Shown: one piece after another, positions 3,722 through 63,206 of the stretch
How positions within the stretch are numbered: the first letter of the stretch is position 1
How the letters are laid out: every line of letters begins with the position of its first letter
NCBI GenBank assembly: GCA_018303445.1
Contig: JAGVYE010000003.1
Span: forward strand, 2,366-66,365
DNA from: Candidatus Woesearchaeota archaeon
Lineage (GTDB): Archaea > Nanobdellota > Nanobdellia > Woesearchaeales > GW2011-AR9
DNA length: 64,000 bases
Reading direction: 5' to 3'
Program-made: the position numbers and the translations under genes
Notes under the pieces: model-generated
The model's input: only the letters and a program-made list of their open reading frames with translations
Databases searched by the model: none
What the model was told of the DNA's origin: nothing

Positions 3722-3789
3722 CTTGTCAGCTTTATTTCATACTTCAAGTGGTCTCCGCAAGTGGTGCTCCAAACACTTTTCAATAACGC
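3722..3789 (+). repeat. 68-bp conserved intergenic element, copy A. 64/68 identical to copy B at 55765..55832. Ends 50 nt upstream of a + strand start codon
   Basis: cttgtcagctttatttcatacttcaagtggtctccgcaagtggtgctccaaacacttttcaataacgc. Contains a TTTATTT TATA-like box. A partial inverted partner lies at 3630-3667. Confidence 0.6.
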
Positions 3790-3838
3790 CCTAAATTTAG
3801 GAAAAATATATAAAGATTATTTTCTTGCTATCGTAGTG

Positions 3839-6724: not shown

Positions 6725-7132
6725 AAAGGTATGTATTAAGTCTGGGGCTTTAACATCAACCCGTGGGCCTTCTCGCCAATTAAGATCCAGCAAAAAGGGA
6801 ATTCATGAAATGTGAAAAATATCACATTTCAGTACTGAAAATAAATCTCTGTTTATTTTCATGTTCCAAAAGGAATTTTTGCCTTTGAGTTGCAACATCG
6901 CGTTCTCTAGGTTCGTGAAAATTGCTAAAATATCAAAAATCACTCAGAAAGTGAAATGTGCCCACATAGTTTACGACAAAAATAAATTATAAAGCAAGGT
7001 TATAAACTCTCGTTAAGGATTAATTCAGTTTCAACCAATAATCCATAGCTTATTTATGTCGCCAATTAACAAAAGAAAAAGTATATAAATGGCAAGATTT
7101 TCTCTTAAAGTTGAAAAAAAAGGATGAATTAG

Positions 7133-9947: not shown

Positions 9948-9951
9948 GATC

Positions 9952-12240: not shown

Positions 12241-12268
12241 AAAGGTGTTCATGAAAAGGTGAAATAAA

Positions 12269-13822: not shown

Positions 13823-13859
13823 TGGGGTTAGTTTATGAGGGTGAAGATGAGGTTAGTTT

Positions 13860-16331
13860 ATGAAAGTGAAGAGAATAAAAAAAGGCAAGCATAGTGTTTT
13901 ACGGTACAAGTCATTGCCTCCTCACACCAATGAAGCAGTTCCTGTTACACATCTGGGAGAAGTAAGCAAACCTTTTATTATTGTTGCCATTACTATTGCT
14001 GCTATTGTTTTGTTAGCGGTATTCTTAATGTTTAAAGATCAGATTGTTGGAAAAGCGTTTTTTGTGGCTGGTGTAGTAGATACAGCAGGCATCGCAAATC
14101 CTGGTTCAGTTTTGGAGAATACGCCTTTTTCTTTGCTGGTTAGAGCTAACATTGGAACGAAAGAAACAACAGGCATAGAATTTGAATTTCCTTTGCCTAC
14201 AGGATTACGTTGCCGAGTGGCAAATCCAATTGAGAATTTGTTGGGATGGAATGCCCAAAATGGGGCGCTGCTAGAGGAAGCAACGTGCGTGAATAACGTG
14301 GTGCATTTCCGTTATCTTACCGTGAATGGGCAAGAAGCGAAGAGAGGAGAGTTTGATATTGCACGAATTCATGTTGAAGGCGCAGCGGCAGGAACATACA
14401 CTTCAACTTTCCGTCTTTTTAATATTATTAATCTTGCTACTCCTCAAGGCGATATCATTAGCAATGGGTTGGTTGATCCTCTCGTTGTACGACAAGTGGG
14501 ATTCTGTCAGGATAATAGCCAATGCCAGCAAGGAGTATGTAATACGCAAACGAATCGATGTGCGCAATGTGTTGCTGATGCGCAATGCAGTGGAACTACG
14601 CCGATTTGTAATACCCAAACTAACCTGTGTGAAGCTCGTGCGCCTGCCTGTGGCAATCAGCAAATTGATGTAACAGAACAATGCGATGATGGTAATACTG
14701 CAAATGGAGATGGTTGTTCAAGCACTTGTCAAAGAGAAGCACCTCCAGAAATAACTTATCGCGTCAATTGTCCTCAAGATAATATTTCTATAGGTCAAAC
14801 AACAACGTGTGAAATTATTTTAAATCAGGCCGTAACGGAAACATACGGAGAACAATTTACGATTTCCGCTCCTGGATTTACGGCAGCAACTCCATTTATT
14901 GAAGGTGTTACAGGTATTACTGCATCTTCGGCAGGAATTGGAGGAACAACCCTTCTCGTTGAAAGTGATCACTTAACGAGCCGAGGTCAAGCGGCAGGTG
15001 TCGTGGCTCGGTTTACACTTCGCGCGGGAAATGCGGGAGGAATATACACAGTCTCTTTGAGCAACTTAGTCTTGGGAAGTTCTGCTACTTCTGATATGAT
15101 AACAATTTTAGCAGCGGAAAGAGAATGCAGCGCAACTAATAAAGCAGCATGCCAAGATCGAACATCATGCGAAGCTACACTTGTCGGCGGATATTGGTAT
15201 AATAATCAATGCAATACCCAACCGGAATGCCGCGTCAATAATTTAGCTGGCTGTCGAACACAAGCACAGTGTGAAGCGACAGCTATTGGCGGCCGATGGA
15301 ATGCGGCAACAAGCACCTGCAGTGCAGCGCCAACATGCAGCCCAACTAATCTGGCTGTGTGCACACAAACAAACTGTGTTACTGTTGGTCAAGGAGTTTG
15401 GAATACAACGGCAAGCAGCTGTGATACAGCAGTTGAAATTTGTAATGATGGACAAGATAATGATCAAGATACTCAAGTAGATTGCGTCGATACGGAATGC
15501 AGAGGAAGAGCCGGTGCCAATGGCGCTCTCTGTTGCCAAGCAGTAGCTGATTGTCGAGAAGGACAAGAGTGTCAAGCAAATCAGTGTAGAACGGTAACAA
15601 TCCAAACAACAACAACTTCTTCGTCTGGCGGAGGCGGTGGCGGAGGAGGCGGAGGCGGTGGTTGCGTTTCCAATTGGCAATGTGATCTTTGGAGTTACTG
15701 TAACTCTACTTTGCAGAAATCGCGAACTTGCATAGATTTGCGAAAATGTATCCAAAAGCCAAAATTAGAAGTTCAATCCTGTCCTGCTTGTGAAGAATCA
15801 TGGTTGTGTACGTCGTGGAGTCAATGTTTTGGCAGTACAAAAACGAGAACGTGTACTGATGAGCATAAATGTGGAACGTTGCGGCTAAAACCATCAGAGC
15901 AGCAGCAATGCACACTTCCAAGTTCGCAATTGCCTGTGCAACAGGTACAGCAGCCTCAACAGTTTTATGTGCCTCCCCCTTCAGTTCCATATCAAGCTCC
16001 ACAAGTACAAAAGCCAAGCGTCTTTAGGCAATATCAAACGTGGTTTATCAGTGGGGCTTCTCTCTTACTTTTAGTTATAATCTTAGGCCTGGTCTGGCGT
16101 TTAACTCATCGTCCTCAGCAACTGGGTTATAATATCGGTGAATTGAAAGAATGGATTAAACAAGAACAAGCAATGGGAACTTCAAACGAAGACATTAAAG
16201 AAATCCTCTCTGATAAAACGGGATGGACAAAAGAAGAAATTGAAAAGGCCTTTGAAAGTTTAGGAAGCGCGCTCACAGAAGAACAACTTCAATCTTCAGA
16301 AGAACAAATCATGGAAATAGGGGGGAAATAA
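13860..16331 (+). CDS. Giant membrane-anchored surface protein: N-terminal signal anchor, Ig-like domain, Myxococcus-type Cys-rich repeats, poly-Gly linker, 2x W-C-W 6-Cys module, Gln/Pro-rich stalk, C-terminal TM and conserved cytoplasmic tail
   Basis: TM1: FIIVAITIAAIVLLAVFLMF. Motif CDDGNTANGDGCSSTCQ. Linker SSSGGGGGGGGGGGG. Modules CVSNWQCDLWSYC.. and CEESWLCTSWSQC... TM2: ISGASLLLLVIILGLVW. Tail: NEDIKEILSDKTGWTKEEIEKAFESLG. Confidence 0.75.
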   Translation: MKVKRIKKGKHSVLRYKSLPPHTNEAVPVTHLGEVSKPFIIVAITIAAIVLLAVFLMFKDQIVGKAFFVAGVVDTAGIANPGSVLENTPFSLLVRANIGTKETTGIEFEFPLPTGLRCRVANPIENLLGWNAQNGALLEEATCVNNVVHFRYLTVNGQEAKRGEFDIARIHVEGAAAGTYTSTFRLFNIINLATPQGDIISNGLVDPLVVRQVGFCQDNSQCQQGVCNTQTNRCAQCVADAQCSGTTPICNTQTNLCEARAPACGNQQIDVTEQCDDGNTANGDGCSSTCQREAPPEITYRVNCPQDNISIGQTTTCEIILNQAVTETYGEQFTISAPGFTAATPFIEGVTGITASSAGIGGTTLLVESDHLTSRGQAAGVVARFTLRAGNAGGIYTVSLSNLVLGSSATSDMITILAAERECSATNKAACQDRTSCEATLVGGYWYNNQCNTQPECRVNNLAGCRTQAQCEATAIGGRWNAATSTCSAAPTCSPTNLAVCTQTNCVTVGQGVWNTTASSCDTAVEICNDGQDNDQDTQVDCVDTECRGRAGANGALCCQAVADCREGQECQANQCRTVTIQTTTTSSSGGGGGGGGGGGGCVSNWQCDLWSYCNSTLQKSRTCIDLRKCIQKPKLEVQSCPACEESWLCTSWSQCFGSTKTRTCTDEHKCGTLRLKPSEQQQCTLPSSQLPVQQVQQPQQFYVPPPSVPYQAPQVQKPSVFRQYQTWFISGASLLLLVIILGLVWRLTHRPQQLGYNIGELKEWIKQEQAMGTSNEDIKEILSDKTGWTKEEIEKAFESLGSALTEEQLQSSEEQIMEIGGK

Positions 16332-18431: not shown

Positions 18432-20009
18432 ATGAGAAATGTCAATAAAGAAAAAGTATTGGTAGCTCTAGCTATTATTATTCTTATCGCAGCTTTTCTA
18501 CTAACTTACATCCCTAAAGGGCCGTTGTTTGGCAAGGCCGTAAGTACAGGAATGACGCATGCCATCTCCATCCAAAATTTTGCTTTCTCACAACTGGAAG
18601 TTACTATTAATGTTGGGGACACAGTCACGTGGACAAATAATGACCAAGCTACACATATGGTAGTTTCGAGAGGAAGCGGACCTTTAGATTCTGGTACGAT
18701 GGTAAACGGGCAAAGTTATAGTTATACTTTTGTTGCTTCTGGCACCTATGAATTCTTTTGTTCCCTTCATCCATTTATTATGATCCCTGGAAGGGTTATA
18801 GTTATTAATGCCACCCCTGCCATTCCGCCGACTCCGCCTTCGCCTCCGCTAGACTCGCTGCCTCCCCAACCTTCGCCACCCCCTCCTCCGCCAGCGGCAA
18901 CGCCGCCTGTGATAGAGATGCCTTCATTAAACATAACTCTTGTCACTCCTTCTCACTCAGGTGCAGTTCAGAATGGAACAGTGAATTTCACGTACCTTTT
19001 TCAGGGAATAACTCCCAGCCAATGTATGTTATATGGAAATTTTAGCGGCACGTGGCAGCCAGGTCTTGCTCAAACAGTAGCTGTTAATGGGAGTTATACA
19101 TTTACTTCTAATCTTTTGAATGGAAGTTACCTTTGGAATGTTCTCTGCAGCAGCAGTTCAACGCAAGGGCTGGTAAGTAAATGGGGAAGCAGGAATTACA
19201 CTTTAACTGTGGCTGTACCAGCAAGTTCTCTTTCCGTCCCTAATATTTCTCAACAAAATCAAATCATGGTTGCTCTTCTTACTCCTGCTGATCGTGCCGC
19301 GTTGCAAAATGAAAGCGTTTCTTTCTCTTTTTCTTTTACAGGACCAACTCAAGGAAGTTGTCAGCTTTATGGCGATTTTAATGGCAGTTGGAGTATGAAT
19401 ACCAGCCTGGCTTCTCTTAATAATGGAACCTCTCGTCTCACTTTTAATGTTGGTAATGGACGTTATCTCTGGAACGTACATTGTGTTGATAGTGCTAATC
19501 TTTCTAATGAAGATTGGAGTGATTATAACTGGAGTGTTAGTGTTTCCCAATTGTCTGTGAATGTCTCGAGTCAAACAAATGCCACAAATATAACTTCTTG
19601 TTTAGAAGCCTGGAGTTGTACAGGGTGGTCTTTATGTGAATTTGGCAGGCAAACACGAATATGCACTGACCAAAATAATTGTGGAACCTTTTTACAAAGA
19701 CCGCCTCAGACCCAAGTTTGTGTTCAGCAGCAGGCAGCAGCAACAACAACTTCTCCAGCAAGTGGAAGTAATTTTCCTTCTACGAACACTGCAGCACAAC
19801 CAACACGGGCTCCTCCTTCCTTTCCTGCTCCTTCTCTTTCAGATACTGAAAAGAAACCTTTGGTGCAGCAGCCAAAAGAAACAACACAGAAAAAAAGTAC
19901 TCTTCTCTTCCTTATCCTTGGCACAACTGTTGCTTTGGTGGGTTTCATCCTCTACCGTAGGCACGTTGAAGTCATATGTGGCAAAAGACAGGATGAGAGG
20001 AGTCAATGA
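18432..20009 (+). CDS. Membrane-anchored surface protein with N-terminal type-1 copper cupredoxin domain, Pro-rich linker, 2x Ig-like N-glycosylated repeats, W-C-W module, C-terminal TM. Apparent +1 frameshift before the conserved cytoplasmic tail, which continues in frame +1 to 20082
   Basis: Cupredoxin ligands: H in ATHMVV, then C..H..M in FFCSLHPFIM. PPTPPSPPLDSLPPQPSPPPPPP linker. Repeated NGSYLWNVLC / NGRYLWNVHC. CLEAWSCTGWSLC module. TM LLFLILGTTVALVGFILY. Tail homolog (VNDTAIRQNLAQAGWNKNDIDEAMKK) is encoded in the other frame (ORF 19636..20082). Confidence 0.7.
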   Translation: MRNVNKEKVLVALAIIILIAAFLLTYIPKGPLFGKAVSTGMTHAISIQNFAFSQLEVTINVGDTVTWTNNDQATHMVVSRGSGPLDSGTMVNGQSYSYTFVASGTYEFFCSLHPFIMIPGRVIVINATPAIPPTPPSPPLDSLPPQPSPPPPPPAATPPVIEMPSLNITLVTPSHSGAVQNGTVNFTYLFQGITPSQCMLYGNFSGTWQPGLAQTVAVNGSYTFTSNLLNGSYLWNVLCSSSSTQGLVSKWGSRNYTLTVAVPASSLSVPNISQQNQIMVALLTPADRAALQNESVSFSFSFTGPTQGSCQLYGDFNGSWSMNTSLASLNNGTSRLTFNVGNGRYLWNVHCVDSANLSNEDWSDYNWSVSVSQLSVNVSSQTNATNITSCLEAWSCTGWSLCEFGRQTRICTDQNNCGTFLQRPPQTQVCVQQQAAATTTSPASGSNFPSTNTAAQPTRAPPSFPAPSLSDTEKKPLVQQPKETTQKKSTLLFLILGTTVALVGFILYRRHVEVICGKRQDERSQ

Positions 20010-23049: not shown

Positions 23050-24117
23050 ATGGAATTTATCGTCGAAAAAGCGCTGGACAATGTTTCAGCATACGATGGA
23101 CTTGACATGAGTCAAGCAAATATTAAAGTAATAGGTGTGGGTGGAGCCGGAAATAATATGGTTGGTTGGCTCTATAAAAAAGGAATAAAAGGAGCGGAGA
23201 TCATTGCAACAAACACTGATCACCAGCATCTTAACATTACTGGTGCGGATCGTAAGTTTCTTATCGGGAAAGACTGCACACGTGGTTTAGGTTGCGGCGG
23301 ATTTCCAAATAAAGGAGCCGAAGCAGCACAAGAATCTCTTATGCAGATTAAGGAAGCGTTGAAAAGCTCTGACATGGTGTTTGTTTGCGCTGGGATGGGC
23401 GGTGGTACGGGAACTGGAGCAGCTCCTGTTGTCGCTCAAGTAGCAAAAGATACAGGGGCCATTGTTATTGGAACAGTGACGATGCCTTTTAACATCGAAA
23501 GAGCACGCTGTGACAAAGCTGAATTTGGTTTGCAGCAACTCCGACAAGTCTCAGATACAGTTATTGTCATTGATAATAACCGTTTGGTGCAAATTGCCGG
23601 AAACTTGCCAATACAGCAAGCCTTTGCTGTTGCTAATGAACTTATTGCCACAATGATTAAAGGAATTGTGGAAACCATTGCCGTGCCTTCCTTAGTCAAT
23701 CTTGACTACGCTGACGTTAAAGCGATTATGACTAATGGCGGTGTAGCAGCTATCGGCGTAGGAAGTTCAGACACTAATAACCGGGTGGAAGAAGCGGTGA
23801 AAGGGGCTCTCTCTAATCCTCTCCTTGATATTAATTATGAAGGAGCTACCGGAGCTTTGATTCACATTACGGGAGGACCGGACATGACTTTGGATGAAGT
23901 TTCCCGAATTGGCGAATTAGTAACAGAATCGCTGGATGATGATGCTAATGTAATTTGGGGAGCAAGAGTAAGCGATGACATGAAAGGGAAATTAACCGTG
24001 ATGACGATTATTACAGGAGTCAATTCCCCTTGGATCTTAGGGAAAGTAGATCAGAAACGGGCTTCAGAGAGTCGAGCGCATACCTTAAGCAGGGAATTAG
24101 GGATTGAACTCGTATAA
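23050..24117 (+). CDS. ftsZ: Cell division GTPase FtsZ (paralog 1)
   Basis: GVGGAGNN and tubulin signature GMGGGTGTGAAP. NTD and T7-loop present. Confidence 0.9.
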   Translation: MEFIVEKALDNVSAYDGLDMSQANIKVIGVGGAGNNMVGWLYKKGIKGAEIIATNTDHQHLNITGADRKFLIGKDCTRGLGCGGFPNKGAEAAQESLMQIKEALKSSDMVFVCAGMGGGTGTGAAPVVAQVAKDTGAIVIGTVTMPFNIERARCDKAEFGLQQLRQVSDTVIVIDNNRLVQIAGNLPIQQAFAVANELIATMIKGIVETIAVPSLVNLDYADVKAIMTNGGVAAIGVGSSDTNNRVEEAVKGALSNPLLDINYEGATGALIHITGGPDMTLDEVSRIGELVTESLDDDANVIWGARVSDDMKGKLTVMTIITGVNSPWILGKVDQKRASESRAHTLSRELGIELV

Positions 24118-36112: not shown

Positions 36113-36979
36113 ATGTTAAAAGATAATGTGAAATTAGAAGTAGTATACCAGGGAAGCAGAGATAGCTTGTCTAAAGGTATTGACGAAGCTGTTGATGGGG
36201 CTTTATTGCAGAGAACCGGGCTAATGCCTGCTGAAGTCTCTTTTGTAGGCGTACGATATAAAGTTACTCTTTTCGCTGCAGCTGCACAACCAGTAGCGCG
36301 ACAAGAAGGAGAAAGCTTGCCAGTTTCCGAAGAACAGACTTATTTGGGAACAAGCACAAGAAATCTTGACGAAGCTATACAGAGTGCGGGACAAAATTTC
36401 CAAGATGCCGCGCGAGAGGCACCTGGTAAATTTGATGAAGCGCGGATTACAGTTGAAGTAACTCAAATCGCAGAAGTTCCTTATTTTGTTCTGCCAGTGG
36501 TAGTGCGATCTATTGATAAAGAAAAATTAGTTGGCTATCATGCGGAAGGAGTTAAGCAATTGGCTGCCACTTATGGCAATCGTTTAAATCAGTCTCCCGA
36601 TGCGGTAGGGTATATGGTGCTTCATACTAAAAAAGATTACCGAAATGATACCTGTTTACCTCGAGAAGGAATAAAAAAAGAGGATATTAAAGCATTTGGT
36701 GTTAGTAGTAAATCACTTGATGATGCCATTAAAAGAGCTGGTAAAAAGCCGCGGAAATCCAAGAGGACGGTGTATGAACAACGTTCAGAGATGATAGTAT
36801 ATGGTTATCCTTGGCGCCAGGAAGTAGTTGAGAAGATTCAAGAAGTAACGATTAATACTAGAGAAGTAGCTGCACCCATGGTTGTTGCCGGGAGTAAGTC
36901 TGGAAGAATGTTCCCACGAGGGGCTCCTCCCGCGGGAAAGGAACCGGTAGCTCTTTCTAGCTTGGCAGAGTTAATGTAA
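36113..36979 (+). CDS. Hypothetical protein with three G-x-S-x3-(A/G)-I-x-x-A-G beta-alpha repeats (dodecin-like?)
   Basis: Repeats GSRDSLSKGIDEAVDGAL, GTSTRNLDEAIQSAGQNF, GVSSKSLDDAIKRAGKK. Converges with and overlaps the 3' end of 36957..38657. Confidence 0.4.
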   Translation: MLKDNVKLEVVYQGSRDSLSKGIDEAVDGALLQRTGLMPAEVSFVGVRYKVTLFAAAAQPVARQEGESLPVSEEQTYLGTSTRNLDEAIQSAGQNFQDAAREAPGKFDEARITVEVTQIAEVPYFVLPVVVRSIDKEKLVGYHAEGVKQLAATYGNRLNQSPDAVGYMVLHTKKDYRNDTCLPREGIKKEDIKAFGVSSKSLDDAIKRAGKKPRKSKRTVYEQRSEMIVYGYPWRQEVVEKIQEVTINTREVAAPMVVAGSKSGRMFPRGAPPAGKEPVALSSLAELM

Positions 36980-38657
36980 TTTTATTAATTATTTTTTTTT
37001 TATATTCTTCTAAGCATAATTCTGATAGTGTTACGGCAAAATGCCCTAAGAACTCAGCAAAAATTCTTGCATACCCGGCAAAAAGGGCGGTTGAATAATC
37101 TGTTCTAAACACGGTTCTGGCGATGCTTTCAATTTGACATTCTTTCCCTTTTATTTTTCGATTGTAAAAAACTAACCTGTCAATAGCATCAAGCATGTAC
37201 GTTGGTTTGTGGTTAAGAATGTGTTCTAATCGTTCGTGTTCGCTTTCAAGAGCAAGAAAACGGACAATTCTGTGATCTTCTATTTGATCAGGACGTAATA
37301 AAAGTGATCTTTCATGGGCTGTAAGTCTTGGTTTTCCTTTTAATCCCTGTCTCTCTAAAGCTTTACTATAACGCTTGAATCTTTCTGCCTCTTTGACATA
37401 AAAAGCGAACAGCGGATCAACATTTTTCAATTTCTCTGTTTCTTTGTCTCTCTCTCCTGGTGTTAGGTAACTTTCTCTTGGTCCTTTTTCATGTTGGTAT
37501 AATGCTTCTGCCGTGGCCATGGCGACTATTACGGCTCCGTGTTCTGATTGCTGTACTCTTTCAAATGATTGATGTGCAGCCAGGATACGATGGCGCTGTA
37601 TATCTGAAGGAGAAGCGCTTTGTTTCATAAGCTCCAGTTCAAATTTTGCTCGTTCTGGAAGAGGAATTTCTTTTAAGCCTTCTAATAGAGGAAGAATGTC
37701 TTCGAGAGGAAGATCTACCATCGGTCTTGGATTCGTGAACTCAGACCAAACCATCCCCGTGCAGTAATAGCCAAGAACTCTTTCTTCTTTCACTCGATGA
37801 TCTGTTCCTAATGTAATTTTATACTCTAATCCTCGGCTTTTAATTCCCGGCCTGTCGATAAGTATACGAGATACAATATCTCCACGACTATTCTCTGATT
37901 TATCGGGAATGAATTTTAAGTACCAGCAAGCTTCAAGAAGCTCTTCGGTCTGCCAAGAGTCAATAAAAGGAATGGCAATGCGTTGCCCTTGATAAAGAAC
38001 AACTTCAGGGTGTGATCTTAAAGCTTTTATATTGGCAACAATTTCGTCTTCATGGTTGTCAATTCTGGCAACAAATTCAAATTTTTGGATCTTATAATCC
38101 CGGCGATGGGTCTTTCCCTGTCTTGCGCTAAAATCTTCGACAGTTACAGTATTGTTTCCAAACCTGATCAGTCCATACATACGCTGAGCTTGGTCAATGG
38201 TCCATAATTCTGGTTTACCTTCTTCTCCGACATCAACAACCACAAGAGCGTGGCCAGCACGTTGTGCGTCGCCTTCTTTCAACAAGCCGCTGAATTCAAC
38301 AAGAACAGGGTTTAAACCGCAAGTTTTGGCAACAACATAATTAGCAATGGCTTGTCCGTAACAATTAGTCATGGAACTTTCATCTGGCCAGGGAGTCCAG
38401 TTATCTGTCTCTAACGCTTCCCGAAACCCGTATCTAAACCGGAGATTTTCAAATAATCTCGTGGCGAGGTCAGCTTTTGTCGCTGTACCATGAGAAAGAG
38501 TTTCTAAAACTCCTGTTTCTTTTAAAAAATTATCTCGAAATTCCTTTTGGAGTGAAGAAGAAAAGTTTATTTTGGCTGGTTGAGGATTTCTAAAAGAAGA
38601 GAAGAGCCGATCTTTAATTTCCTCAGCCCAAGTAATGGTGTGATCAGGAAATGGCAT
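36957..38657 (-). CDS. Transglutaminase-like cysteine protease-fold protein with a large uncharacterised C-terminal region
   Basis: TGL core: NCYGQAIANYVVAKTCG (Cys) ... AGHALVVVDVGE (His) ... D. 566 aa. Confidence 0.6.
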   Translation of the reverse strand: MPFPDHTITWAEEIKDRLFSSFRNPQPAKINFSSSLQKEFRDNFLKETGVLETLSHGTATKADLATRLFENLRFRYGFREALETDNWTPWPDESSMTNCYGQAIANYVVAKTCGLNPVLVEFSGLLKEGDAQRAGHALVVVDVGEEGKPELWTIDQAQRMYGLIRFGNNTVTVEDFSARQGKTHRRDYKIQKFEFVARIDNHEDEIVANIKALRSHPEVVLYQGQRIAIPFIDSWQTEELLEACWYLKFIPDKSENSRGDIVSRILIDRPGIKSRGLEYKITLGTDHRVKEERVLGYYCTGMVWSEFTNPRPMVDLPLEDILPLLEGLKEIPLPERAKFELELMKQSASPSDIQRHRILAAHQSFERVQQSEHGAVIVAMATAEALYQHEKGPRESYLTPGERDKETEKLKNVDPLFAFYVKEAERFKRYSKALERQGLKGKPRLTAHERSLLLRPDQIEDHRIVRFLALESEHERLEHILNHKPTYMLDAIDRLVFYNRKIKGKECQIESIARTVFRTDYSTALFAGYARIFAEFLGHFAVTLSELCLEEYKKKIINKITLTLPS

Positions 38658-38658
38658 T

Positions 38659-40179
38659 TTACATGAGTTTTTCTGAAAGGAGTGTTCTAGGTTTAGCAGG
38701 CTCCATAGGTTGGTTTATTTTTTGATATTGTAAAGGAACATTGCTGGCTATCCTTAGTCTCCATTTTTCATGTTCTCGTTCTAATACTTTTTCGACGACG
38801 ATAGAAAGAATCCGATAATCTGAATGTAACTCTGTAACTTTTCTCACCACATCTCTTGATGCGAATCGCGTTACGCCAAATTCTTCAATAGCTTCTTCCA
38901 CACATTCGATTTGCCGTGCTGTGGGAATGATTTCTTTAAATCTGTAAACAGTAGATTTTGATCTTTCAGGAGAGATTTCTTCTACTCCTGCTGTTGTTCT
39001 TAAGTTTCTCGCAACGTAAATGTTACTTACAGGCAATCCTTGATTTTCGGCAATGCGGTTAAGATGCTCTTTTGTGAATCCTTCATATGCCGGCGGCTGT
39101 TCCCGCAATAAAGCCAAAGCTTTTTTGAAGTAAAAGTCGTTAACTTCCGCTAGATCGGGTGTTTGTAAATGTTTAATCATATAGTCTATGAAACTTTTTT
39201 TGTCTAATCTTTGGCCTGTTTCTCGTCTCATAAAAACTCTGGCTCCAGCCCGCTCTACTTTCTGTAAACAAAAAACTGTCATCTCATATTCTAAATAGTT
39301 AGCGAGTCCTTTTGTCCCTATTACTTCTATGCCTAATTTCTCTTTTACATAAGCAGGACTGATGGCCGTTCCTGAAGTTAGTTTTGTAATATGTTCATAA
39401 ATCAGATATAATTCCTCTAATAGCTTAGGCAGAGTTTCTAAATTCAGATCTCTTTGCTTGTCATTTGGCAGAAGGCTCGGAGGCGCACTAGTTCGTGAAA
39501 ATAGGTTTGTTATTGCCGCTTTTCTGGAGACGATGAAAGGATCAAAATCAGGGCCGTTATAAGCGTCATTTCCCAGTCTTTTTGAAATTTCCTCCGCGGA
39601 AGGAATACGGTAATGGACAGCTTCAATCCCACTTTCGATAAGAGTTCTCAAAGTCGTCTCTACTTTAGATACACTGGCAATAGAACGATGAAGCTGTTCT
39701 CTTTCTCGTTGAGTTTCATCAAGTTGAGAAATTTTTCTTTTTAGGGCTACAACTTTGGTAAGTTCCTCTTCATTCATTTCAATTACGGTTTTTTTTCCTA
39801 ATTTTGTTAAATAATCTCTGTCTGCTTGTCCCTTAGCTAGTTCTTTATCATATTCTTCAAGCAGTCCTTTTTGGGTTTTAATTTCTTCATTTACATTTTT
39901 AATAACTTGTTTTGCATACCTTTGCTGCAGCGTAACCCATTGTTCGGTAATTGCTTCTAAGCGGCTATCTCCAGCTATTGCCGCTACAGTTGCGAATGCG
40001 GCTATTTGTTGCCTTAATTTGAGGTACTCATCATGTTTAATAGGCATTGAAGCTTCCGGAATTCTGATTTGGGGCAGTCCATTAAGAAGTTCTGTTAAAT
40101 TTTTTTTTGCTGGTTCTGTTATTACTGCTGAAATTTCATCAGCCCCGATACATGAAATAATGCGTTGTAATTCGGTCAT
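38659..40179 (-). CDS. Large cytoplasmic hypothetical protein, translationally coupled to the downstream transglutaminase-like gene
   Basis: 506-aa ORF ending 1 nt before the TGL gene start. No motif recognised. Confidence 0.45.
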   Translation of the reverse strand: MTELQRIISCIGADEISAVITEPAKKNLTELLNGLPQIRIPEASMPIKHDEYLKLRQQIAAFATVAAIAGDSRLEAITEQWVTLQQRYAKQVIKNVNEEIKTQKGLLEEYDKELAKGQADRDYLTKLGKKTVIEMNEEELTKVVALKRKISQLDETQREREQLHRSIASVSKVETTLRTLIESGIEAVHYRIPSAEEISKRLGNDAYNGPDFDPFIVSRKAAITNLFSRTSAPPSLLPNDKQRDLNLETLPKLLEELYLIYEHITKLTSGTAISPAYVKEKLGIEVIGTKGLANYLEYEMTVFCLQKVERAGARVFMRRETGQRLDKKSFIDYMIKHLQTPDLAEVNDFYFKKALALLREQPPAYEGFTKEHLNRIAENQGLPVSNIYVARNLRTTAGVEEISPERSKSTVYRFKEIIPTARQIECVEEAIEEFGVTRFASRDVVRKVTELHSDYRILSIVVEKVLEREHEKWRLRIASNVPLQYQKINQPMEPAKPRTLLSEKLM

Positions 40180-45317: not shown

Positions 45318-46712
45318 ATGTTTAACAAACTAAAAGAAAAACTCAAAAGTGCCTTAAGTATTTTTTCTAAGAAGGCGGAAGAAGCAGCAGTGCCTCTGGA
45401 AAAAGCGCAGGAAGAGGAGGAAAAAATTTCTGAAAAAGCTACGATTTCTCCAAAAGAAGAGGTCGCATCTAAAAAAGAAGCAGGAAAGAAAAAAAAGATT
45501 GAAGAAAAGAAGGACTTTTCTCCAGAAAATCTAACGGAAAAAGTTTCAAAAAAGAAAGAAGAGGCAAAAGAAAAGAAGAAAATAGAAAAAGAGAGGGAAA
45601 AAGTTGGCTTACCAGAAGCCTCGCAACAGAAGAAAGAGGTTCTAGAGGAAAAATCTGTAGAAGTTAAATTAGCCCAAACAGTTCTAGATGAAGAAAAGGA
45701 ATCTCCTTCATTCTTGGAGCGAATTAAAGAAAAGTTTAGAGGAAAGAAGAAGGAAGAAATCACAGAAGAAAAAAAAGATTTTAGAGAAAATGAAATACCT
45801 GCAGAAGAAAATTTTCCAGAGAAAAAAACAGATCAGGAAAAAACCTCTTTTTTTGGAAAAGTAAAACAAACCTTAACGACGAAGACTATTTCTGAAGAAA
45901 AATTTGAAGGATTATTCTGGGAATTAGAACTTGGGTTATTGGAAAACAATGTTTCCGTCAACGTCATTGAAAAAATTAAGGTTGATCTTAAAGAAGAATT
46001 GGTGGAGAAACCCCTGCCTTGGAATGTGGAAAGAAAAATTGAAGAGACGCTGCGCGCAACTCTTAGTACCATTTTATCACAGGAGCCAATAGATCTTTTG
46101 AATAAAATAAACGGCAAAAAGCCTTACATCATTGCTTTCTTTGGTGTCAATGGGGCGGGAAAGACCACGTCGATGGCTAAACTTGCTTATTATTTGCAGC
46201 AACATCATCATTCCGTGGTGTTGGCAGCAGGCGACACTTTTAGGGCCGCGGCGATTCAACAATTACAGGAGCATGCCGATCGTTTAAGTGTTCCCCTTAT
46301 TAAACAGAATTATGGAGCAGATGCAGCGGCTGTCGCTTACGACGCAGTGAGGTATGCGGAGAAAAATAAACTGGATGTTGTTCTCATTGATACGGCAGGG
46401 CGTCTTCATTCCAATACTAATTTAATGGCGGAGTTAGAGAAAATTATTCGTGTGGCAAAACCAGACCTTAAAATTTTTGTTGGCGAAAGCATCACTGGAA
46501 ATGACTGCATTGAACAAGCTGAGAAATTTAACCAACTTGTAGAAATGGATGGGGTAATTTTAACAAAAGCCGATGTTGACGAGAAAGGGGGAGCGCCATT
46601 ATCTATTTCTTATGTGATCAAGAAACCAATTCTTTTCTTAGGGGTCGGACAGCGATATAAAGACTTTGAACAATTTGACAAAGAAAAAATGTTAGAAAGG
46701 TTGGGAATTTAA
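45318..46712 (+). CDS. ftsY: Signal recognition particle receptor FtsY with long K/E-rich N-terminal domain
   Basis: SRP-GTPase NG domain: GVNGAGKTT, DTFRAAA, DTAGR, TKAD. Confidence 0.9.
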   Translation: MFNKLKEKLKSALSIFSKKAEEAAVPLEKAQEEEEKISEKATISPKEEVASKKEAGKKKKIEEKKDFSPENLTEKVSKKKEEAKEKKKIEKEREKVGLPEASQQKKEVLEEKSVEVKLAQTVLDEEKESPSFLERIKEKFRGKKKEEITEEKKDFRENEIPAEENFPEKKTDQEKTSFFGKVKQTLTTKTISEEKFEGLFWELELGLLENNVSVNVIEKIKVDLKEELVEKPLPWNVERKIEETLRATLSTILSQEPIDLLNKINGKKPYIIAFFGVNGAGKTTSMAKLAYYLQQHHHSVVLAAGDTFRAAAIQQLQEHADRLSVPLIKQNYGADAAAVAYDAVRYAEKNKLDVVLIDTAGRLHSNTNLMAELEKIIRVAKPDLKIFVGESITGNDCIEQAEKFNQLVEMDGVILTKADVDEKGGAPLSISYVIKKPILFLGVGQRYKDFEQFDKEKMLERLGI

Positions 46713-48229
46713 AGGAGGTTGTGTCTGGCTTTCTGATGATCATAAGTGAGGTTGGAGATTTTTCGAATAAGATCTCCGCGCGACTTAATCCAGGCACCAT
46801 AGTTCGAAGTTCTTGTTTTCTTTTCAACGATCCCAATTAAAGTATAAGCATGACGTCGTCCGTCCCTGCCTCTGGCATAGAGAATACTCATATCTCCACA
46901 TAGTCTTGCCGTGCTTCCTGTTTTGTTGTACACCAATGTTCCAGTGGGAACTCTCTCTGCTCCGGTATAAACTCTATCCCTTCCAGGAAGGGCCATTAAT
47001 CTTCGCATTTCTCTTGCTTGAGGAAGATCATCATTCCATAAAGCGTATAGGAAACGACTGTAGTCATGTGCTGAGGCTTTATTTCTGTAGGTTTGTCCTC
47101 CGCTAGGGATGTATTCTACTATAGATATATCTTTAAAGATATTTCCATAATGTTCAGTTAAAATTCTTTTCATGGCTTGAGGTCCGCCAACTTGCCGCAT
47201 TACCCAGTTTGTGGAAGCATTGTTACTTTTTTGAATCATTTTTTTCATATGCTTTTTAGCTTCTGCGTTGTATTGACGTTTTCCTTGTTGCACTAAATGA
47301 AAATAGGCGAGGGCAGCAAATGGTTTCATCATACTCGCACTCTGTCTTGGAGCGTCTTCGTTTATAGAAACAATTTTCTCTCCGGTTGTAAAGTCATATA
47401 CTGACCAAGAAGTTTGTTCATCAGCAGTGCGATGATTTTGTACATACTTTTCAATTTTTCTTTCCAGACTGTCGGGAGCAACTGGTCTCCTTGGTTCAGA
47501 AAATTTTCTGGGAGGTTTAATGGGAGGTTCTGTTTCGTCTAAGTAACTTGATTCTCCGTATTCAACTTGATTATTATTTTCCAGAATCGTGGAAGGGTTG
47601 AAACCTTTTTCTTGCAGTAATGTTTTATGCCGCTCTGCTATATTTCTCGTTGAATTCTCATCTCCACGTCGTCTCCAGACGAGAGCATATTTTCCATTTA
47701 CTCTTTCAATAACAAGGTTTTTTCCTACTTCTGGACCTAAAGTTCTATAAACTGTTTCGAAACTTCTTTTTAGAGCGTTAACACTTGTTCCTTTCTTATA
47801 TTCTACATTGAACAAGTCATGATAACCTTCATCTTTGATGATGACTGCTCTGTCAAGTTCCGCTTGCTGAAGAAGTTTGTGATGGTGTTGTGCTGTTTTT
47901 TCCGCATCAGTTTTGGACGCATTTCGGTCATAAATAAGACCAAATCTACCGGAAGTTCCTTGGACAATATGAAGTTCTCGTGCTACATCTGGACCTAATA
48001 TTCGAGCTACATCTTCTTGATAATCCAAGACGGCTTCAATATCTGGATGCCAAAGATAGGAGACATCATATTTTTCTGCTTGCGCCTGAGCCGTTGCAGG
48101 ATGGCTTGCGAGTGTTGACAAAAATGCGGCTATGCCAGCACCTAAAGCGGTATCTCTTGCCAACTGTCTTCTCGTTCTGGGACTTTCCTTCCCAATGCTG
48201 AATAATACCTCTTCTAGTAATTGTAACAT
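46709..48229 (-). CDS. Class A beta-lactamase/D-Ala-D-Ala-carboxypeptidase-like serine hydrolase with Tat-type signal and two SPOR-like repeats
   Basis: TRRQLARDTALGAGIAAF (twin-Arg). Repeats ..GRFGLIYDRNASKTDAEKTAQ.. and ..GKYALVWRRRGDENSTRNIAERH... S-x-x-K (SMMK), S-T-N, K-T-G (NKTGS) motifs. Confidence 0.65.
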   Translation of the reverse strand: MLQLLEEVLFSIGKESPRTRRQLARDTALGAGIAAFLSTLASHPATAQAQAEKYDVSYLWHPDIEAVLDYQEDVARILGPDVARELHIVQGTSGRFGLIYDRNASKTDAEKTAQHHHKLLQQAELDRAVIIKDEGYHDLFNVEYKKGTSVNALKRSFETVYRTLGPEVGKNLVIERVNGKYALVWRRRGDENSTRNIAERHKTLLQEKGFNPSTILENNNQVEYGESSYLDETEPPIKPPRKFSEPRRPVAPDSLERKIEKYVQNHRTADEQTSWSVYDFTTGEKIVSINEDAPRQSASMMKPFAALAYFHLVQQGKRQYNAEAKKHMKKMIQKSNNASTNWVMRQVGGPQAMKRILTEHYGNIFKDISIVEYIPSGGQTYRNKASAHDYSRFLYALWNDDLPQAREMRRLMALPGRDRVYTGAERVPTGTLVYNKTGSTARLCGDMSILYARGRDGRRHAYTLIGIVEKKTRTSNYGAWIKSRGDLIRKISNLTYDHQKARHNLL

Positions 48230-48360
48230 TGTAATTCTTAGTTATTCCTCTAGCTTTTTTTCTGGCGTTATGCTTACTCTAGTTGATCGAGTTTCTTGGT
48301 TCTTCAAAAGAGGTTTTTCTTTATAAATCTTTCTGATTTTTAACCACTTACAAATAACAA

Positions 48361-48549
48361 CTAACTCTGCATTCTTCTTCGCCAGCCTTCTTCACTGATA
48401 GAAGTGTCAATACCTATGCCACTGGAAGGATTCACAGAAGTAATTTTAATAGAAAGGCCTTCTTCTACTTTAGCCGTCTCTTGATTTTTGGCAATCATTT
48501 CGCAACAGGCTTTTTTCAAACGTGGTAAATTTAAGTCAGGTTCGATCAT
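48361..48549 (-). CDS. Small hypothetical protein (TusA-like fold?)
   Basis: 62 aa. LNLPRLKKACCEMIAK resembles the TusA L-x-L-x-G-L-x-C-P motif but with CC. Weak. Confidence 0.25.
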   Translation of the reverse strand: MIEPDLNLPRLKKACCEMIAKNQETAKVEEGLSIKITSVNPSSGIGIDTSISEEGWRRRMQS

Positions 48550-48610
48550 AATCGTTTCTTAAATCTTTTTTTCTATTTAAATCTTTCGGTATTTTGTTAC
48601 TAATAAATGG

Positions 48611-51815: not shown

Positions 51816-52853
51816 ATGAATCATTTAGGTACAAAGATTATGGAAGCCCTTCAAGGGCTCGATAAAGTATATGCTCCGATAAAAGCTGAATTAGGCGCCT
51901 TGGAACATAAAATAACTGCAGGACGCCAGTCTGTGGAAGACTTACAACGTTACGGAGAACTTGACTTTGCCTGTAGGCCTTTTTTAGAAGTAGTTGAAGG
52001 GCTAATATTTGTACAAGAGCTCATGAAAGAAGCGGGTGATAAAGTATTCAACAGAGAACTTGTTTTAGAAGCAGAAAGATATTTAGCTAAAACTTCTGAC
52101 ATTCTCTTACAACACAGCTTCTCACAACCATATGATTCTCATAATGCTGTTTTAACTCTTGAGATTGGGCAAGGAAAAGGCGGTTTAGAAAGAGTTTTAC
52201 GAGATTTGATTGGGGCTTATGATAAATTTACTGCGAGAAAAGGCTTAAGTCTAGATGAGGTTGAAGTCGGTGATAGCTATGACCGAACAATTAGGGTTAT
52301 AGGAAGAAATTCTTATGGCCTCTTCAGAACAGAGCATGGTGTCCATCGTTTTATTTATTATGTTGCAGATGGAAAGAAACAAACAGGGTTCATAACTGTT
52401 ACAGTAGTACCTGAAATAGAAAATCCTGAAATCGTTCTGAATGAAAAGGATCTTAGGTATGAGTTCCTTAAAGCTACAGGGCCTGGCGGTCAACATAATC
52501 ATAAAAATGCGACTGCGGCACGTATTACACATCGTCCTTCGGGCTTATCTGCCATTGCTCGCTCACGTTCCCGTGCACAAAGTATCGCCAGTGCTAAAGC
52601 AGTCTTAACTTCGAGAGTTCAACAATTATCAACTTCTTCTCGAGACGGTCTTCTAGAAAGTTTTCCTCCTCGAATAGATCCAAGCTATGGAAGTTGTCGT
52701 ACACGAACATACGATTTTACAGGTAACTTTATTAGAGATGACCGATCGGAGGTTCTCTCTACAGATATAGATGCTTTTTTCAAAGGAATTATAGATCCTT
52801 TTATTTACGCTGCTCATGGTATTCCTTTTTCCGTAGGTTTGAACAGTTTGTAA
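51816..52853 (+). CDS. Bacterial-type class-I peptide chain release factor homolog (RF-1 domain with GGQ). No PxT/SPF decoding motif
   Basis: EFLKATGPGGQHNHKNATAARITHRPSG matches the bacterial RF1/RF2 GGQ region. RTRTYDFTG matches RNRTYNF. Domain-2 region reads YYVADGKKQTGFITV where RF1 has PAT and RF2 has SPF. Confidence 0.65.
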   Translation: MNHLGTKIMEALQGLDKVYAPIKAELGALEHKITAGRQSVEDLQRYGELDFACRPFLEVVEGLIFVQELMKEAGDKVFNRELVLEAERYLAKTSDILLQHSFSQPYDSHNAVLTLEIGQGKGGLERVLRDLIGAYDKFTARKGLSLDEVEVGDSYDRTIRVIGRNSYGLFRTEHGVHRFIYYVADGKKQTGFITVTVVPEIENPEIVLNEKDLRYEFLKATGPGGQHNHKNATAARITHRPSGLSAIARSRSRAQSIASAKAVLTSRVQQLSTSSRDGLLESFPPRIDPSYGSCRTRTYDFTGNFIRDDRSEVLSTDIDAFFKGIIDPFIYAAHGIPFSVGLNSL

Positions 52854-56625: not shown

Positions 56626-57786
56626 TTGAAGGTTATGGATAATTATGCTCTTCAAAATAGTAATTCTCAAAATAGTAATTCTCAACACTATCCTATTATC
56701 ACTAATGCTCGGGAAGTATCTCCTTTAAAATCACATCGTGATATTGATGAAGAACTTCAACAGCTCATTGCTAGTCATAAAACACGTATTAAAGTAATTG
56801 GTTGTGGTGGAGCTGGAAATAACACCATCAACAGAATCTCTGAAGTTGGTATTAAAGGAATAGAAACTATTGCCATTAATACTGATGCCCAAGATTTATT
56901 GTATACTTCTGCGGATAAGAAAATTCTCATTGGGAAAGAGTTAACACAAGGGCTAGGTGCTGGTTCTAATCCCAAAATTGGTGAAGAATCAGCAAAAGAA
57001 AACGAACATGACATTAAAAAGTCACTTGAAGGATCAGACCTGATCTTTATCACCTGTGGTTTAGGAGGGGGAACAGGGACAGGAAGTGCTCCTTTTGTCG
57101 CTCAAGTGGCAAAAAAAATGGGAACAATGTCCGTAGCCATAGTTACGATGCCATTCGCCATGGAAGGAACACATCGCTTTGAAAACGCCATGATCGGGTT
57201 AGAGAAATTGGAACAAAGTGTGAACACTTTAATCGTTATCCCTAATGAAAAGCTCCTTGAACTTGCGCCTCATTTACCATTACAAACGGCCTTTAAGGTA
57301 GCTGATGAAATTCTTACCAATGCTGTAAAAGGCATTGCCGAACTCGTAACAAAAACAGGATTGGTAAACCTAGATTTTGCGGATGTTAAAGCGATTATGA
57401 GTGAAGGAGGAGTAGCCATGATTGGTGTCGGTGAATCTGACTCAGATAACAGGGCCGAAGAATCAGTGTTGAAAGCCTTAGAAAACCCTCTTATTGATGT
57501 TGACATTTCCAAAGCCACAGGCGCTCTCATAAACATTTCCGGCGGAGAGAATTTAACGTTAGACGAATCCAGAAAGATTGTCGAAAATGTTGCCGAGCGG
57601 CTTGATGGGCGGGCAAAAATTATCTGGGGAGCACAGATTTACAAAGATCTTGACAAGATCGTCCGCACTATGATCATCATTACAGGTGTGAAATCAGATC
57701 AAATTTTTGGCGAGCAACATCAACTGAAGATGGAACGGAAGAAAGTTATGAAATCTGAATTAGGCATTGATATTGTGGACGAATAA
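56626..57786 (+). CDS. ftsZ: Cell division GTPase FtsZ (paralog 2)
   Basis: GCGGAGNN, GLGGGTGTGSAP. Extended N-terminus. Confidence 0.9.
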   Translation: MKVMDNYALQNSNSQNSNSQHYPIITNAREVSPLKSHRDIDEELQQLIASHKTRIKVIGCGGAGNNTINRISEVGIKGIETIAINTDAQDLLYTSADKKILIGKELTQGLGAGSNPKIGEESAKENEHDIKKSLEGSDLIFITCGLGGGTGTGSAPFVAQVAKKMGTMSVAIVTMPFAMEGTHRFENAMIGLEKLEQSVNTLIVIPNEKLLELAPHLPLQTAFKVADEILTNAVKGIAELVTKTGLVNLDFADVKAIMSEGGVAMIGVGESDSDNRAEESVLKALENPLIDVDISKATGALINISGGENLTLDESRKIVENVAERLDGRAKIIWGAQIYKDLDKIVRTMIIITGVKSDQIFGEQHQLKMERKKVMKSELGIDIVDE

Positions 57787-62902: not shown

Positions 62903-62960
62903 TTTTTTATTTACTCTCAGAGTAAGTAAAAGTACTCAGTTAGAGTACATATATGTACCT

Positions 62961-63046
62961 GGGCCCGTAGCTCAGGGGTAGAGCGCCTGCCTTGCAGGTC
63001 AGTCCTAGAACGCAGGAGGCCTCGGGTTCAAATCCCGACGGGTCCA
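62961..63046 (+). tRNA. tRNA-Ala (TGC) in the 16S-23S spacer, with a 14-nt intron (62997..63010) at the canonical 37/38 position
   Basis: GGGCCCGTAGCTCAGGGGTAGAGCGCCTGC-CTTGCA[ggtcagtcctagaa]C-GCAGGAGGCCTCGGGTTCAAATCCCGACGGGTCCA. Cloverleaf intact once the intron is removed. No encoded CCA. Confidence 0.85.
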
Positions 63047-63206
63047 TTCCCTATGGGGAAAGAACGTTCCTGAAAATCCTTCTGGATTTCTGGGACACGA
63101 CGTTATCGACAACAACGTTGTTGGTAGCGATTGGTTGAGTTTGATGGAGCATGTATTCAACATGCGAGATAACATCATAATAATGAGCCATATGTAGATC
63201 AAAGTA

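Follow-up and report, generated by a model that had tools for sequence, protein, structure and literature searches.

What would an archaeon of a group that, to our knowledge, is not known to make murein do with an exported serine hydrolase built like a penicillin-binding protein (PBP)? The question is raised by a gene on a 64,000-nucleotide stretch of DNA from a Candidatus Woesearchaeota archaeon (contig JAGVYE010000003.1, positions 2,366 to 66,365; hereafter the window), where we found a complete open reading frame (ORF) of 506 amino acids plus stop codon at 46709..48229 on the minus strand, at exactly the coordinates given by the original prediction, an annotation made from the DNA letters and their translated reading frames. 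The protein is identical to NCBI entry MBS3116122.1, which is labelled 'serine hydrolase [Candidatus Woesearchaeota archaeon]' and lies on a 68-kb contig, and the exact protein occurs on 12 contigs. Judged by its sequence, it is an exported-type, catalytically intact, PBP-A-like hydrolase that carries a novel tandem module and is shared with Desulfobulbales and other bacteria. We give roughly even odds (a probability of about 0.5) to the reading that it is a secreted DD-peptidase acting on the peptide stems of bacterial peptidoglycan, with the repeats of the tandem module serving as a binding module, a reading in which we infer the substrate.

An intact catalytic domain behind a predicted export leader

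Residues 255-506 (46712..47467; like all parts of the gene given below, on the minus strand) form a catalytic domain with a class-A beta-lactamase/PBP-A fold, as judged by Pfam, Foldseek and a profile search. The Pfam Beta-lactamase2 model (PF13354) matched at 68.2 bits against a gathering cut-off of 22 bits (E=8.5e-19), and the same domain was present in 120/120 homologues among the matches listed. Three motifs follow one another in order: an SxxK motif, S299-M-M-K302 (47324..47335), which holds the nucleophilic serine and the general-base lysine and aligns with the corresponding motifs of PBP-A and TEM; an SxN motif, S335-N-N337 (47219..47227), equivalent to S130-D-N132 of class A; and a KTG motif, K436-T-G438 (46916..46924), on strand beta3. 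Across the family alignment, K302, N337 and K436/T437/G438 were conserved in 68/68 sequences, and S299 and S335 in 67/68. Hence, the original call of a class-A beta-lactamase/PBP-like serine hydrolase, which had started from the SxxK, S(T)N and KTG motifs, is borne out by an intact catalytic Ser-Lys pair, by motifs that hold throughout the alignment, by the Pfam score, and by the fold and profile matches.

Modeling the protein with AlphaFold2, run with the 68-sequence alignment, yielded a whole-protein model with a predicted local distance difference test score (pLDDT) of 90.8 and a predicted template modeling score (pTM) of 0.82. The model displayed the two-lobed arrangement (alpha/beta plus all-alpha) of this fold, with Foldseek template modeling (TM) scores of 0.70-0.78, normalised to the target, and E values of about 1e-12 for the top catalytic matches. 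Against the PDB, Foldseek ranked PBP-A from Thermosynechococcus (2J8Y/2J7V) first at E=1.9e-12, followed by LRA-5 (8eo6), BlaB from Streptomyces cacaoi (2wuq) and TEM-1. Searching the family profile against PDB sequences, we obtained PBP-A at E=5e-11, LRA-5 at E=4e-8 and TEM at about 5e-5, such that PBP-A came first by both routes, with small margins over LRA-5 and TEM. The domain furthermore contains a strongly conserved Arg-rich segment, RRLMxLPGRDR, with R410 and R419 invariant.

These matches raise the question of whether the enzyme might be a true beta-lactamase, in which E372 would act like Glu166 on the deacylating water, either protecting a bacterial host or partner or persisting as a retained resistance gene. 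We regard this as quite unlikely. It is consistent with the presence of all three class-A motifs, with the rank of class-A enzymes among the top structural matches, and with an invariant glutamate in an omega-like loop, E372-Y-I374-P375 (47105..47116), where both E372 and I374 are conserved in 68/68 sequences. Counting from the conserved glycine that follows the preceding helix, G362+10 leads to E372, which is the same spacing as that of G156-E166 in TEM, V166 in LRA-5 and L158 in PBP-A, and in the V166E mutant of LRA-5 the engineered Glu was the residue that HMMER placed opposite E372. By contrast, the best profile alignments to natural proteins, also made with HMMER, set I374 opposite L158 of PBP-A and V166 of LRA-5, while alignments with TEM put E372 at positions 170/171; no equivalent of Asn170 is present four residues after E372. 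As aligned at the sequence level, E372 and I374 thus appear as competing candidates for Ambler position 166. The score with the NCBIfam class-A equivalog model NF033103 was 36.6 bits, below its cut-off of 200 bits. Moreover, PBP-A and LRA-5, the closest relatives and nearest structures, both lack Glu166 and are not effective beta-lactamases (PMC11189452; PMC12777564): PBP-A was experimentally shown to be a DD-carboxypeptidase/endopeptidase specific for amidated muropeptides (PMC11189452), and LRA-5 has negligible beta-lactamase activity and gains activity only with Y69Q/V166E (PMC12777564). Finally, an archaeon has no PBPs to protect, and the conserved 165-residue accessory module described below is not carried by classical beta-lactamases.

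The enzyme appears to be made for export. Residues 1-51 (48077..48229) read as a predicted twin-arginine translocation (Tat) signal peptide, with a long n-region, the segment T19-R20-R21-Q-L-A-R, a weakly hydrophobic h-region (TALGAGIAAFLSTLA), and a c-region SHPATAQA/QA that offers AxA sites after A49 or A51. We made this call by inspection and a Kyte-Doolittle scan rather than with a trained predictor. RR-bearing relatives (53 of the 121 sequences examined, including some Desulfobulbales where the RR is probably coincidental) share the consensus [N/S/D]-R-R-[E/x]-F-L-K. Their leaders run for a mean of 46.5 residues to the first conserved motif, longer than Sec-type leaders, and reach a hydrophobicity maximum of 2.29, compared to 2.82 in the Sec-type leaders of bacterial homologues. 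While most Desulfobulbales homologues have Sec-type leaders, RR leaders are also found in many divergent bacterial members, indicating that the Tat signal is a family trait and not an archaeal addition. The twin-arginine leader named in the original prediction therefore stands as a plausible Tat signal, in view of the RR motif, the mild h-region and the AxA sites in this protein and the canonical RR-x-F-L-K in its relatives.

The repeat module and the proposed role as a peptidoglycan peptidase

In the mechanism that we propose, Tat would export the folded protein, Ser299 would attack the D-Ala-D-Ala or the cross-link peptide bond of peptidoglycan stems, making the enzyme a DD-carboxypeptidase and/or a DD-endopeptidase, and the repeat module would hold it on the sacculus or on muropeptides. 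As murein is not known from Woesearchaeota themselves, the substrate would be the wall, or fragments of the wall, of a bacterial host, prey or neighbour, and the enzyme may serve to loosen that wall where the cells touch, or to salvage peptides from it. The gene would have been acquired from, or shared with, bacteria long ago and would since have passed on by vertical descent under a native archaeal promoter. For the family in bacteria, the link to peptidoglycan comes from the signal peptides of the homologues and from a VanY-type (M15) D-Ala-D-Ala carboxypeptidase gene, found upstream and in divergent orientation to the family gene at 15 loci of Desulfobulbales (L020, L024, L026, L029, L034, L036-L039, L042, L044, L046-L048 and L060), several of them labelled Desulfocapsaceae or Desulfofustis. 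VanY was the sole wall-related conserved neighbour found anywhere; the remaining bacterial neighbours were unrelated, namely MTH1187-like and GDPD-like proteins, recognised by eye, and SHMT and a sigma factor, recognised by Pfam. Of the targets offered by the original prediction, the cell wall of a bacterial partner is still the preferred one, and pseudomurein-like polymers found no support.

The module ahead of the catalytic domain comprises two repeats, residues 54-135 (47825..48070) and 136-219 (47573..47824), each a beta-alpha-beta-beta-alpha-beta unit of ferredoxin-like fold. It is followed by a poorly conserved Pro/Lys/Glu-rich linker (residues 220-254; 47468..47572), which varies in length across the family and has the lowest pLDDT outside the leader. 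The two repeats matched each other by BLASTP at E=1e-12 with 25% identity, and, upon modeling the pair alone, we obtained a pLDDT of 95.2 and the same secondary-structure order for both, as assigned by DSSP to the models. Strong conservation was seen for Y58, W60, Y100, D101, N141 and Y144 in the repeat strands. A profile of the repeat pair, searched against 1.84 billion representative proteins, returned 149 matches, mostly of family length or fragments. Across the family, the copy number of the repeat varies from one to four: three repeats are present in P0012, P0034, P0035, P0046, P0057, P0061, P0068, P0070 and P0115, four in P0002 and P0004, and one in P0197, P0212, P0248 and others, which are the same enzyme. 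Most of the three-repeat proteins have an apparent N-terminal membrane anchor (RRYHLVGALLALVLVAIIVIGIY) in place of a cleavable leader.

The original prediction had described 'two SPOR-like repeats' and taken them to point to peptidoglycan binding. SPOR domains, as found in FtsN, DamX, DedD, RlpA and CwlC, bind denuded glycan strands of septal peptidoglycan, and the repeats resemble them in topology, in size (about 75-85 amino acids) and in that an exported enzyme of wall type carries them in varying numbers. In both libraries searched with Foldseek, SPOR domains were the best single-domain matches, at a probability of 0.99 and with E values of 0.07-0.13 that are not significant; the RlpA SPOR domain (6I09) superposed at a TM score of 0.68 and a root-mean-square deviation (rmsd) of 3.6 A over 86 columns, and a SPOR protein of phage Bam35c at an rmsd of 2.7 A over 85 columns. 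The 'VQxG' signature in strand beta1 of the four E. coli SPOR domains is absent, and neither repeat contains Q-x-G: beta1 of repeat 1 is YDVSYLW and that of repeat 2 FNVEYKK, and across the family it reads YDVSYxW or YNVSYG, the latter being the consensus. The beta-alpha-beta-beta-alpha-beta fold itself is common to ACT, RRM and many other domains and is not specific to SPOR. Furthermore, SPOR domains are promiscuous in their fusion partners, whereas the repeat module is tied to one catalytic domain.

Weighing against the peptidoglycan reading are a series of results, most of which concern this module. Pfam SPOR (PF05036), one of the two hidden Markov model (HMM) checks that the original prediction had proposed, the other being the positive one for Beta-lactamase2, gave no match at E<=1 with the protein or at E<=10 with the repeat regions of 21 members. 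An HMM of the repeats gave negative hmmsearch scores with the SPOR domains of E. coli FtsN, DamX, DedD and RlpA, hhalign against an alignment of these four domains returned a probability of 0.2%, and the repeat-pair profile had no match among PDB sequences. When the whole pair was submitted to Foldseek, tandem ACT and designed ferredoxin folds ranked highest, at E about 3e-4 and TM 0.25-0.3. Among the 1.84 billion representatives, with the odd-length matches checked, we found no other catalytic partner for the repeat module: of the ten matches of unusual length that were checked, Pfam recognised Beta-lactamase2 in eight and no domain in P0254, and P0241 was a spurious coiled-coil adhesin. As no other fusion partner exists among them, no function follows by guilt by association. 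Beyond the module, the archaeal loci showed no conserved wall-related neighbours, only housekeeping synteny; Pfam scans and a motif scan detected no tatA or tatC within the 64-kb window; and the invariant Glu372 could be a deacylation base of the Glu166 type, which would also fit a true beta-lactamase. The activity and substrate of the family members are likewise predictions, the repeats as a peptidoglycan-binding module are a conjecture, and a bacterial host of the archaeon is a candidate only.

SPOR membership was rejected, as all sequence tests failed and the fold alone is alike. Of the earlier claim, the two repeats are thus real and their fold is SPOR-like, while membership of the SPOR family by sequence does not hold, such that 'SPOR-like' can be defended for the fold and not for membership. 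The step to peptidoglycan binding draws on the fold resemblance, to which the sequence tests and the fusion partners add nothing. The module is a family-specific accessory domain with a SPOR/ACT/RRM fold, previously undescribed and without a Pfam entry.

Two further explanations bear on what the repeats do and on what the enzyme cuts. Under any catalytic reading, the N-terminal half could be a pro-domain, an intramolecular chaperone or inhibitor that is removed or displaced after export, which we think unlikely. Such a role would fit the fold, which is seen in protease pro-domains such as the ferredoxin-like pro-peptides of subtilisins and carboxypeptidases (general knowledge), as well as the exclusive association of the module with one catalytic domain, the low-pLDDT Pro/Lys-rich linker behind it as a potential cleavage site, and the pTM of 0.82 of the full model, which suggests a fixed packing of the modules. 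However, a range of 1-4 copies is what one expects of a binding module and is uncommon in pro-domains, and both the conserved aromatic and polar residues in the strands and the SPOR identity of the best single-domain matches speak against it.

Alternatively, the substrate of this serine hydrolase could be something else than peptidoglycan, with the class-A/PBP fold recruited to cleave other D-amino-acid peptides, esters or amides for nutrient scavenging, or to process surface proteins of the archaeon itself, and with the repeats binding that substrate. We hold this to be a possibility of some substance, albeit an improbable one. The repeat module is unique to the family and has no sequence link to wall-binding domains, the RRLMxLPGRDR segment is without a described counterpart in PBP-A, and the archaeal loci are devoid of conserved wall-related neighbours, while the long vertical retention of the gene in wall-less archaeal genomes, at least one of them apparently about 1 Mb in size, shows a benefit to the archaeon itself. 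Set against this, all characterised class-A-like enzymes with SxxK, SxN and KTG motifs act on D-Ala-D-Ala peptides or their beta-lactam mimics (general knowledge; PMC11189452), VanY adjoins the gene in the bacterial loci, and the leaders in bacteria and archaea imply an extracytoplasmic site, which is where peptidoglycan is found.

Taking the DD-peptidase reading further, we can imagine that, throughout the time over which its housekeeping genes diverged, this clade has kept a Tat-exported PBP-type DD-peptidase with a wall-binding module that converged on the SPOR fold, and that the enzyme edits the peptide cross-links in the sacculus of a bacterial host where the two cells meet. We put this forward tentatively and consider it rather doubtful. 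In a more radical variant, these archaea would build a murein-like layer themselves.

Elsewhere in the window, at 3761-16331 on the plus strand, six large ORFs (479-987 amino acids) with a secreted or surface-like character follow one another in a run. Their domains include Laminin_G_3/ConA-like, NosD/right-handed beta-helix, eight copies of DUF4215, MopE-type metal-binding motifs and Big_9/cadherin-like domains, and the run is a typical DPANN surface or attachment arsenal that may be relevant to a host-contact lifestyle.

An old archaeal gene in a mostly bacterial family

Is the gene archaeal at all? The window ends in an archaeal 16S-tRNA-23S operon. On one side of the gene, Pfam scans identified archaeal Tyw1, PRPP synthase, prefoldin and ftsY, the last of which is convergent with the serine hydrolase gene, their ends overlapping by 4 bp; on the other side lie aspartate kinase and a MiaB/MtaB-like radical-SAM enzyme, and farther away S6e, NMD3, two FtsZ genes, an Rpb7-like gene, ProRS and IleRS. 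With archaeal 16S and 23S rRNA on the contig and archaeal core genes on both sides, the gene resides in a genuine archaeal genome, as the original prediction had assumed. Its GC content of 0.404 compares to a mean of 0.408, its GC content at third codon positions (GC3) is 0.292, and its codon-usage distance of 0.169, compared to a mean of 0.210, is well inside the range of the genome.

Upstream of the gene, an exact copy of a B-recognition element (BRE)/TATA-like promoter motif (GAAAGATTTATAAA) lies at 48320..48333 on the minus strand, 91 nt from the ATG, and is identical to the copy of GAAAGATTTATAAA upstream of the 16S rRNA gene. The motif RAAAGATTTAWAWA had 12 matches where 1.5 were expected; the majority precede ORFs by a few tens of bases, and the motif probably represents the organism's consensus for BRE/TATA promoters. 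Its starts in the window include 2176, 16507, 32934, 33417, 41397, 48320, 48574, 50399, 57808 and 61182. The 381-bp gap between the aspartate kinase and serine hydrolase genes also contains a 62-amino-acid ORF (48361-48549, minus strand), a candidate small gene, with an exact copy of the promoter motif at 48574-48587, 25 nt upstream of its ATG.

Gene context also pointed to other archaeal carriers. One relative (P0006) is encoded on a roughly 1-Mb contig with archaeal RNA polymerase genes adjoining, and for two more (P0014 and P0002) the gene again sits beside ftsY-prefoldin, with NMD3, Tyw1 or a MiaB-like gene near. Synteny with ftsY, prefoldin, NMD3, Tyw1 and the MiaB-like gene is kept at loci L083 and L084, and with ftsY only at L073 (CAYTOG010000078.1), a 3-kb contig binned as 'Methanosarcinales' on which ftsY lies directly beside the family gene. 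Locus L015 (WJIO01000073.1), binned as 'Poribacteria', and the Woesearchaeota locus L001 have DnaJ and DnaK in common, along with another small neighbour that may be GrpE. Both L073 and L015 look like mis-binned DNA of the Woesearchaeota type. Between the syntenic Woesearchaeota lineages, the enzyme is 49-52% identical, while prefoldin shows 30-40% identity, NMD3, Tyw1 and the MiaB-like protein 48-58%, and the GTPase domain of ftsY 70-75%. The gene has been resident for a long time and is vertically inherited in one Woesearchaeota clade; its conserved position beside ftsY-prefoldin at about 50% identity, its native promoter motif, and its typical GC content and codon usage show that it is not a recent import.

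These observations also address the concern that the gene might be a bacterial contaminant, an assembly chimera or a very recent transfer without an archaeal role. Most family members are indeed bacterial, and the catalytic fold is a bacterial invention. However, archaeal ftsY-prefoldin and aspartate kinase enclose the gene, the contig also bears archaeal 16S and 23S rRNA, the gene holds the same position in independent Woesearchaeota assemblies from different samples, the protein is found on 12 contigs, and GC content, codon usage and promoter motif are native, leaving a probability that we consider negligible. Recent horizontal transfer and contamination were accordingly rejected on composition, promoter and synteny.

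The family at large amounts to over 2,255 clusters when grouped at 90% identity and to about 149 at 50%, with relatives in at least 555 stretches of GTDB species-representative genomes, and is mostly bacterial, with a deep set of Woesearchaeota members. The best 80 of these at least 555 stretches belong mostly to Desulfobulbales, together with an 'Eisenbacteria'-labelled clade and three Woesearchaeota, and the cultured carriers among the best 80 include Desulfogranum, Desulfopila, Desulforhopalus and Desulfosediminicola. We built a neighbour-joining tree of 106 sequences and, for the catalytic domain, a second tree with bootstrap values and with TEM-1 and SHV-1 as outgroup, which, at about 16% identity, provide a weak root. 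The backbone had bootstrap values below 50%, with archaeal and bacterial sequences almost equidistant, and the only supported clades were Desulfobulbales (72-86%), the 'Eisenbacteria'-labelled group (97%) and the three-repeat proteins (97%). Hence, the phylogeny that had been proposed for identifying a donor lineage named none. The suggestion of a gene derived from bacteria by horizontal transfer stands insofar as the family is predominantly bacterial, while a recent or simple transfer is contradicted by the native synteny, promoter and composition; a bacterial origin is suggested by the bacterial nature of the fold and its substrates rather than by the tree. The original prediction had further held that best homologues that are archaeal and without peptidoglycan-related function would argue against it; the nearest relatives are indeed archaeal, but they have no known function.

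Several other features of the window are of interest in their own right. A gene at 51816-52853 on the plus strand, annotated at NCBI as 'PCRF domain-containing protein', encodes a bacterial-type release-factor homologue that has the domains PCRF and RF-1 as well as the GGQ motif, in the form GPGGQH; archaea normally use aRF1, and the gene, whose GC3 of 0.24 is the lowest of the 30 coding sequences examined, looks like another bacterial-type gene in this genome. Within the 16S-23S spacer, an 88-nt tRNA at 62960-63047 (plus strand), unassigned by ARAGORN, can be read as tRNA-Ala(UGC) in which extra nucleotides directly follow the anticodon loop and look like an archaeal tRNA intron. The two FtsZ paralogues (23050-24117 and 56626-57786, both on the plus strand), each with Tubulin and FtsZ_C domains, correspond to the FtsZ1/FtsZ2 pair that is usual in archaea, and their surroundings contain no genes for murein synthesis. 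A 525-amino-acid protein at 18432-20009 (plus strand) has an N-terminal cupredoxin domain of the plastocyanin/azurin type, which is unusual for a presumably fermentative, reduced genome. Two adjacent ORFs on the minus strand, 36957-38657 and 38659-40179, encode proteins of 566 and 506 amino acids in which Pfam recognised nothing at E<=0.001. The latter, equal in length to the serine hydrolase, was rejected as a family relative, since it has no Pfam domain and does not cluster with the family, and the shared length is a coincidence.

Implications and comparison with known systems

A life on other cells is assumed for DPANN archaea, but most Woesearchaeota lack a known partner. Enzymes that make sense only with murein as their target are among the few genomic clues that some have bacterial partners, and so far these have been glycan-cutting lytic transglycosylases; a vertically conserved, export-tagged PBP-type peptidase would add the peptide-cutting half of the wall-opening toolkit. 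If the more far-reaching reading, with cross-link editing at the contact site, is true, the protein would be the first example in Archaea of a PBP-type murein enzyme directed at the peptide stem, bacterial rather than archaeal hosts would be implied for this DPANN clade, and the occurrence of the family in Desulfobulbales would hint at the lineage of the host. As the protein is compact and easily expressed, the idea is cheaply testable. The newly defined family is widespread in Desulfobulbales, with an 80-residue repeat domain exclusive to it, and its place at the boundary between PBPs and beta-lactamases, close to PBP-A and LRA-5, bears on how beta-lactamases arose. Our search of the literature, which covered the family, archaeal enzymes of class-A or PBP type and beta-lactamases of DPANN, found nothing specific. 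Overall, the finding is a worthwhile lead for the study of DPANN-bacteria interactions and of the boundary between PBPs and beta-lactamases, and no categorical surprise.

Among known enzymes, PBP-A (Tll2115 of Thermosynechococcus elongatus; PDB 2J7V and 2J8Y) compares most closely, being the top match by structure (TM 0.70-0.77) and by profile. The SxxK, SxN and KTG motifs of the two align, HMMER puts a hydrophobic residue at the Glu166 position in both, and both are exported-type, soluble proteins with one catalytic domain. They differ in that sequence identity is about 15-17%, PBP-A is devoid of the N-terminal repeat module, and the archaeal enzyme and its relatives have an invariant Glu two residues upstream in the loop, an omega region that is 3-4 residues longer, and the invariant Arg-rich RRLMxLPGRDR; in addition, the host is archaeal here, and the family is known from sequences alone. 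LRA-5 (PDB 8EO5-8EO7), a metagenomic class-A 'precursor' without Glu166, was the best single-sequence PDB match (E=6.9e-5) and is a top-3 structural match with 19-22% identity and the same three motifs. Its omega loop is atypical, with Val at position 166, and, in contrast to the protein studied here, it is a single-domain protein of about 290 amino acids with no repeat module. The class-A serine beta-lactamases proper (TEM-1 and SHV-1; NF033103) have the same fold and the same S70xxK, S130xN and K234TG triad, whereas our protein has a segment between SxxK and SxN that is 24 residues shorter (36 compared to 60), an extra N-terminal region of 200 residues, no Asn170, and an uncertain equivalence to Glu166.

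In terms of function, the nearest precedent comes from other murein-directed proteins of archaea. Woesearchaeota and Pacearchaeota carry murein lytic transglycosylases, which have been read as tools against bacterial walls (PMC8204110, PMC9723730), and archaeal peptidoglycan hydrolases were reported to kill bacteria (PMC12352652), in a paper whose main text mentions neither beta-lactamase nor carboxypeptidase nor PF13354. We found no GH23 transglycosylase in the 64-kb window. The large extracellular GH23 proteins of these two groups, which have been interpreted as serving to attach to bacteria or to attack them (PMC8204110, PMC9723730), would be functional analogues of the enzyme described here and not homologues: they are bacterial-type, murein-active proteins of murein-less DPANN archaea, but they have another fold and chemistry, cut the glycan strand and reach up to 3,000 amino acids, whereas the present protein is predicted to act on the peptide stem and is a compact 506 amino acids in length.

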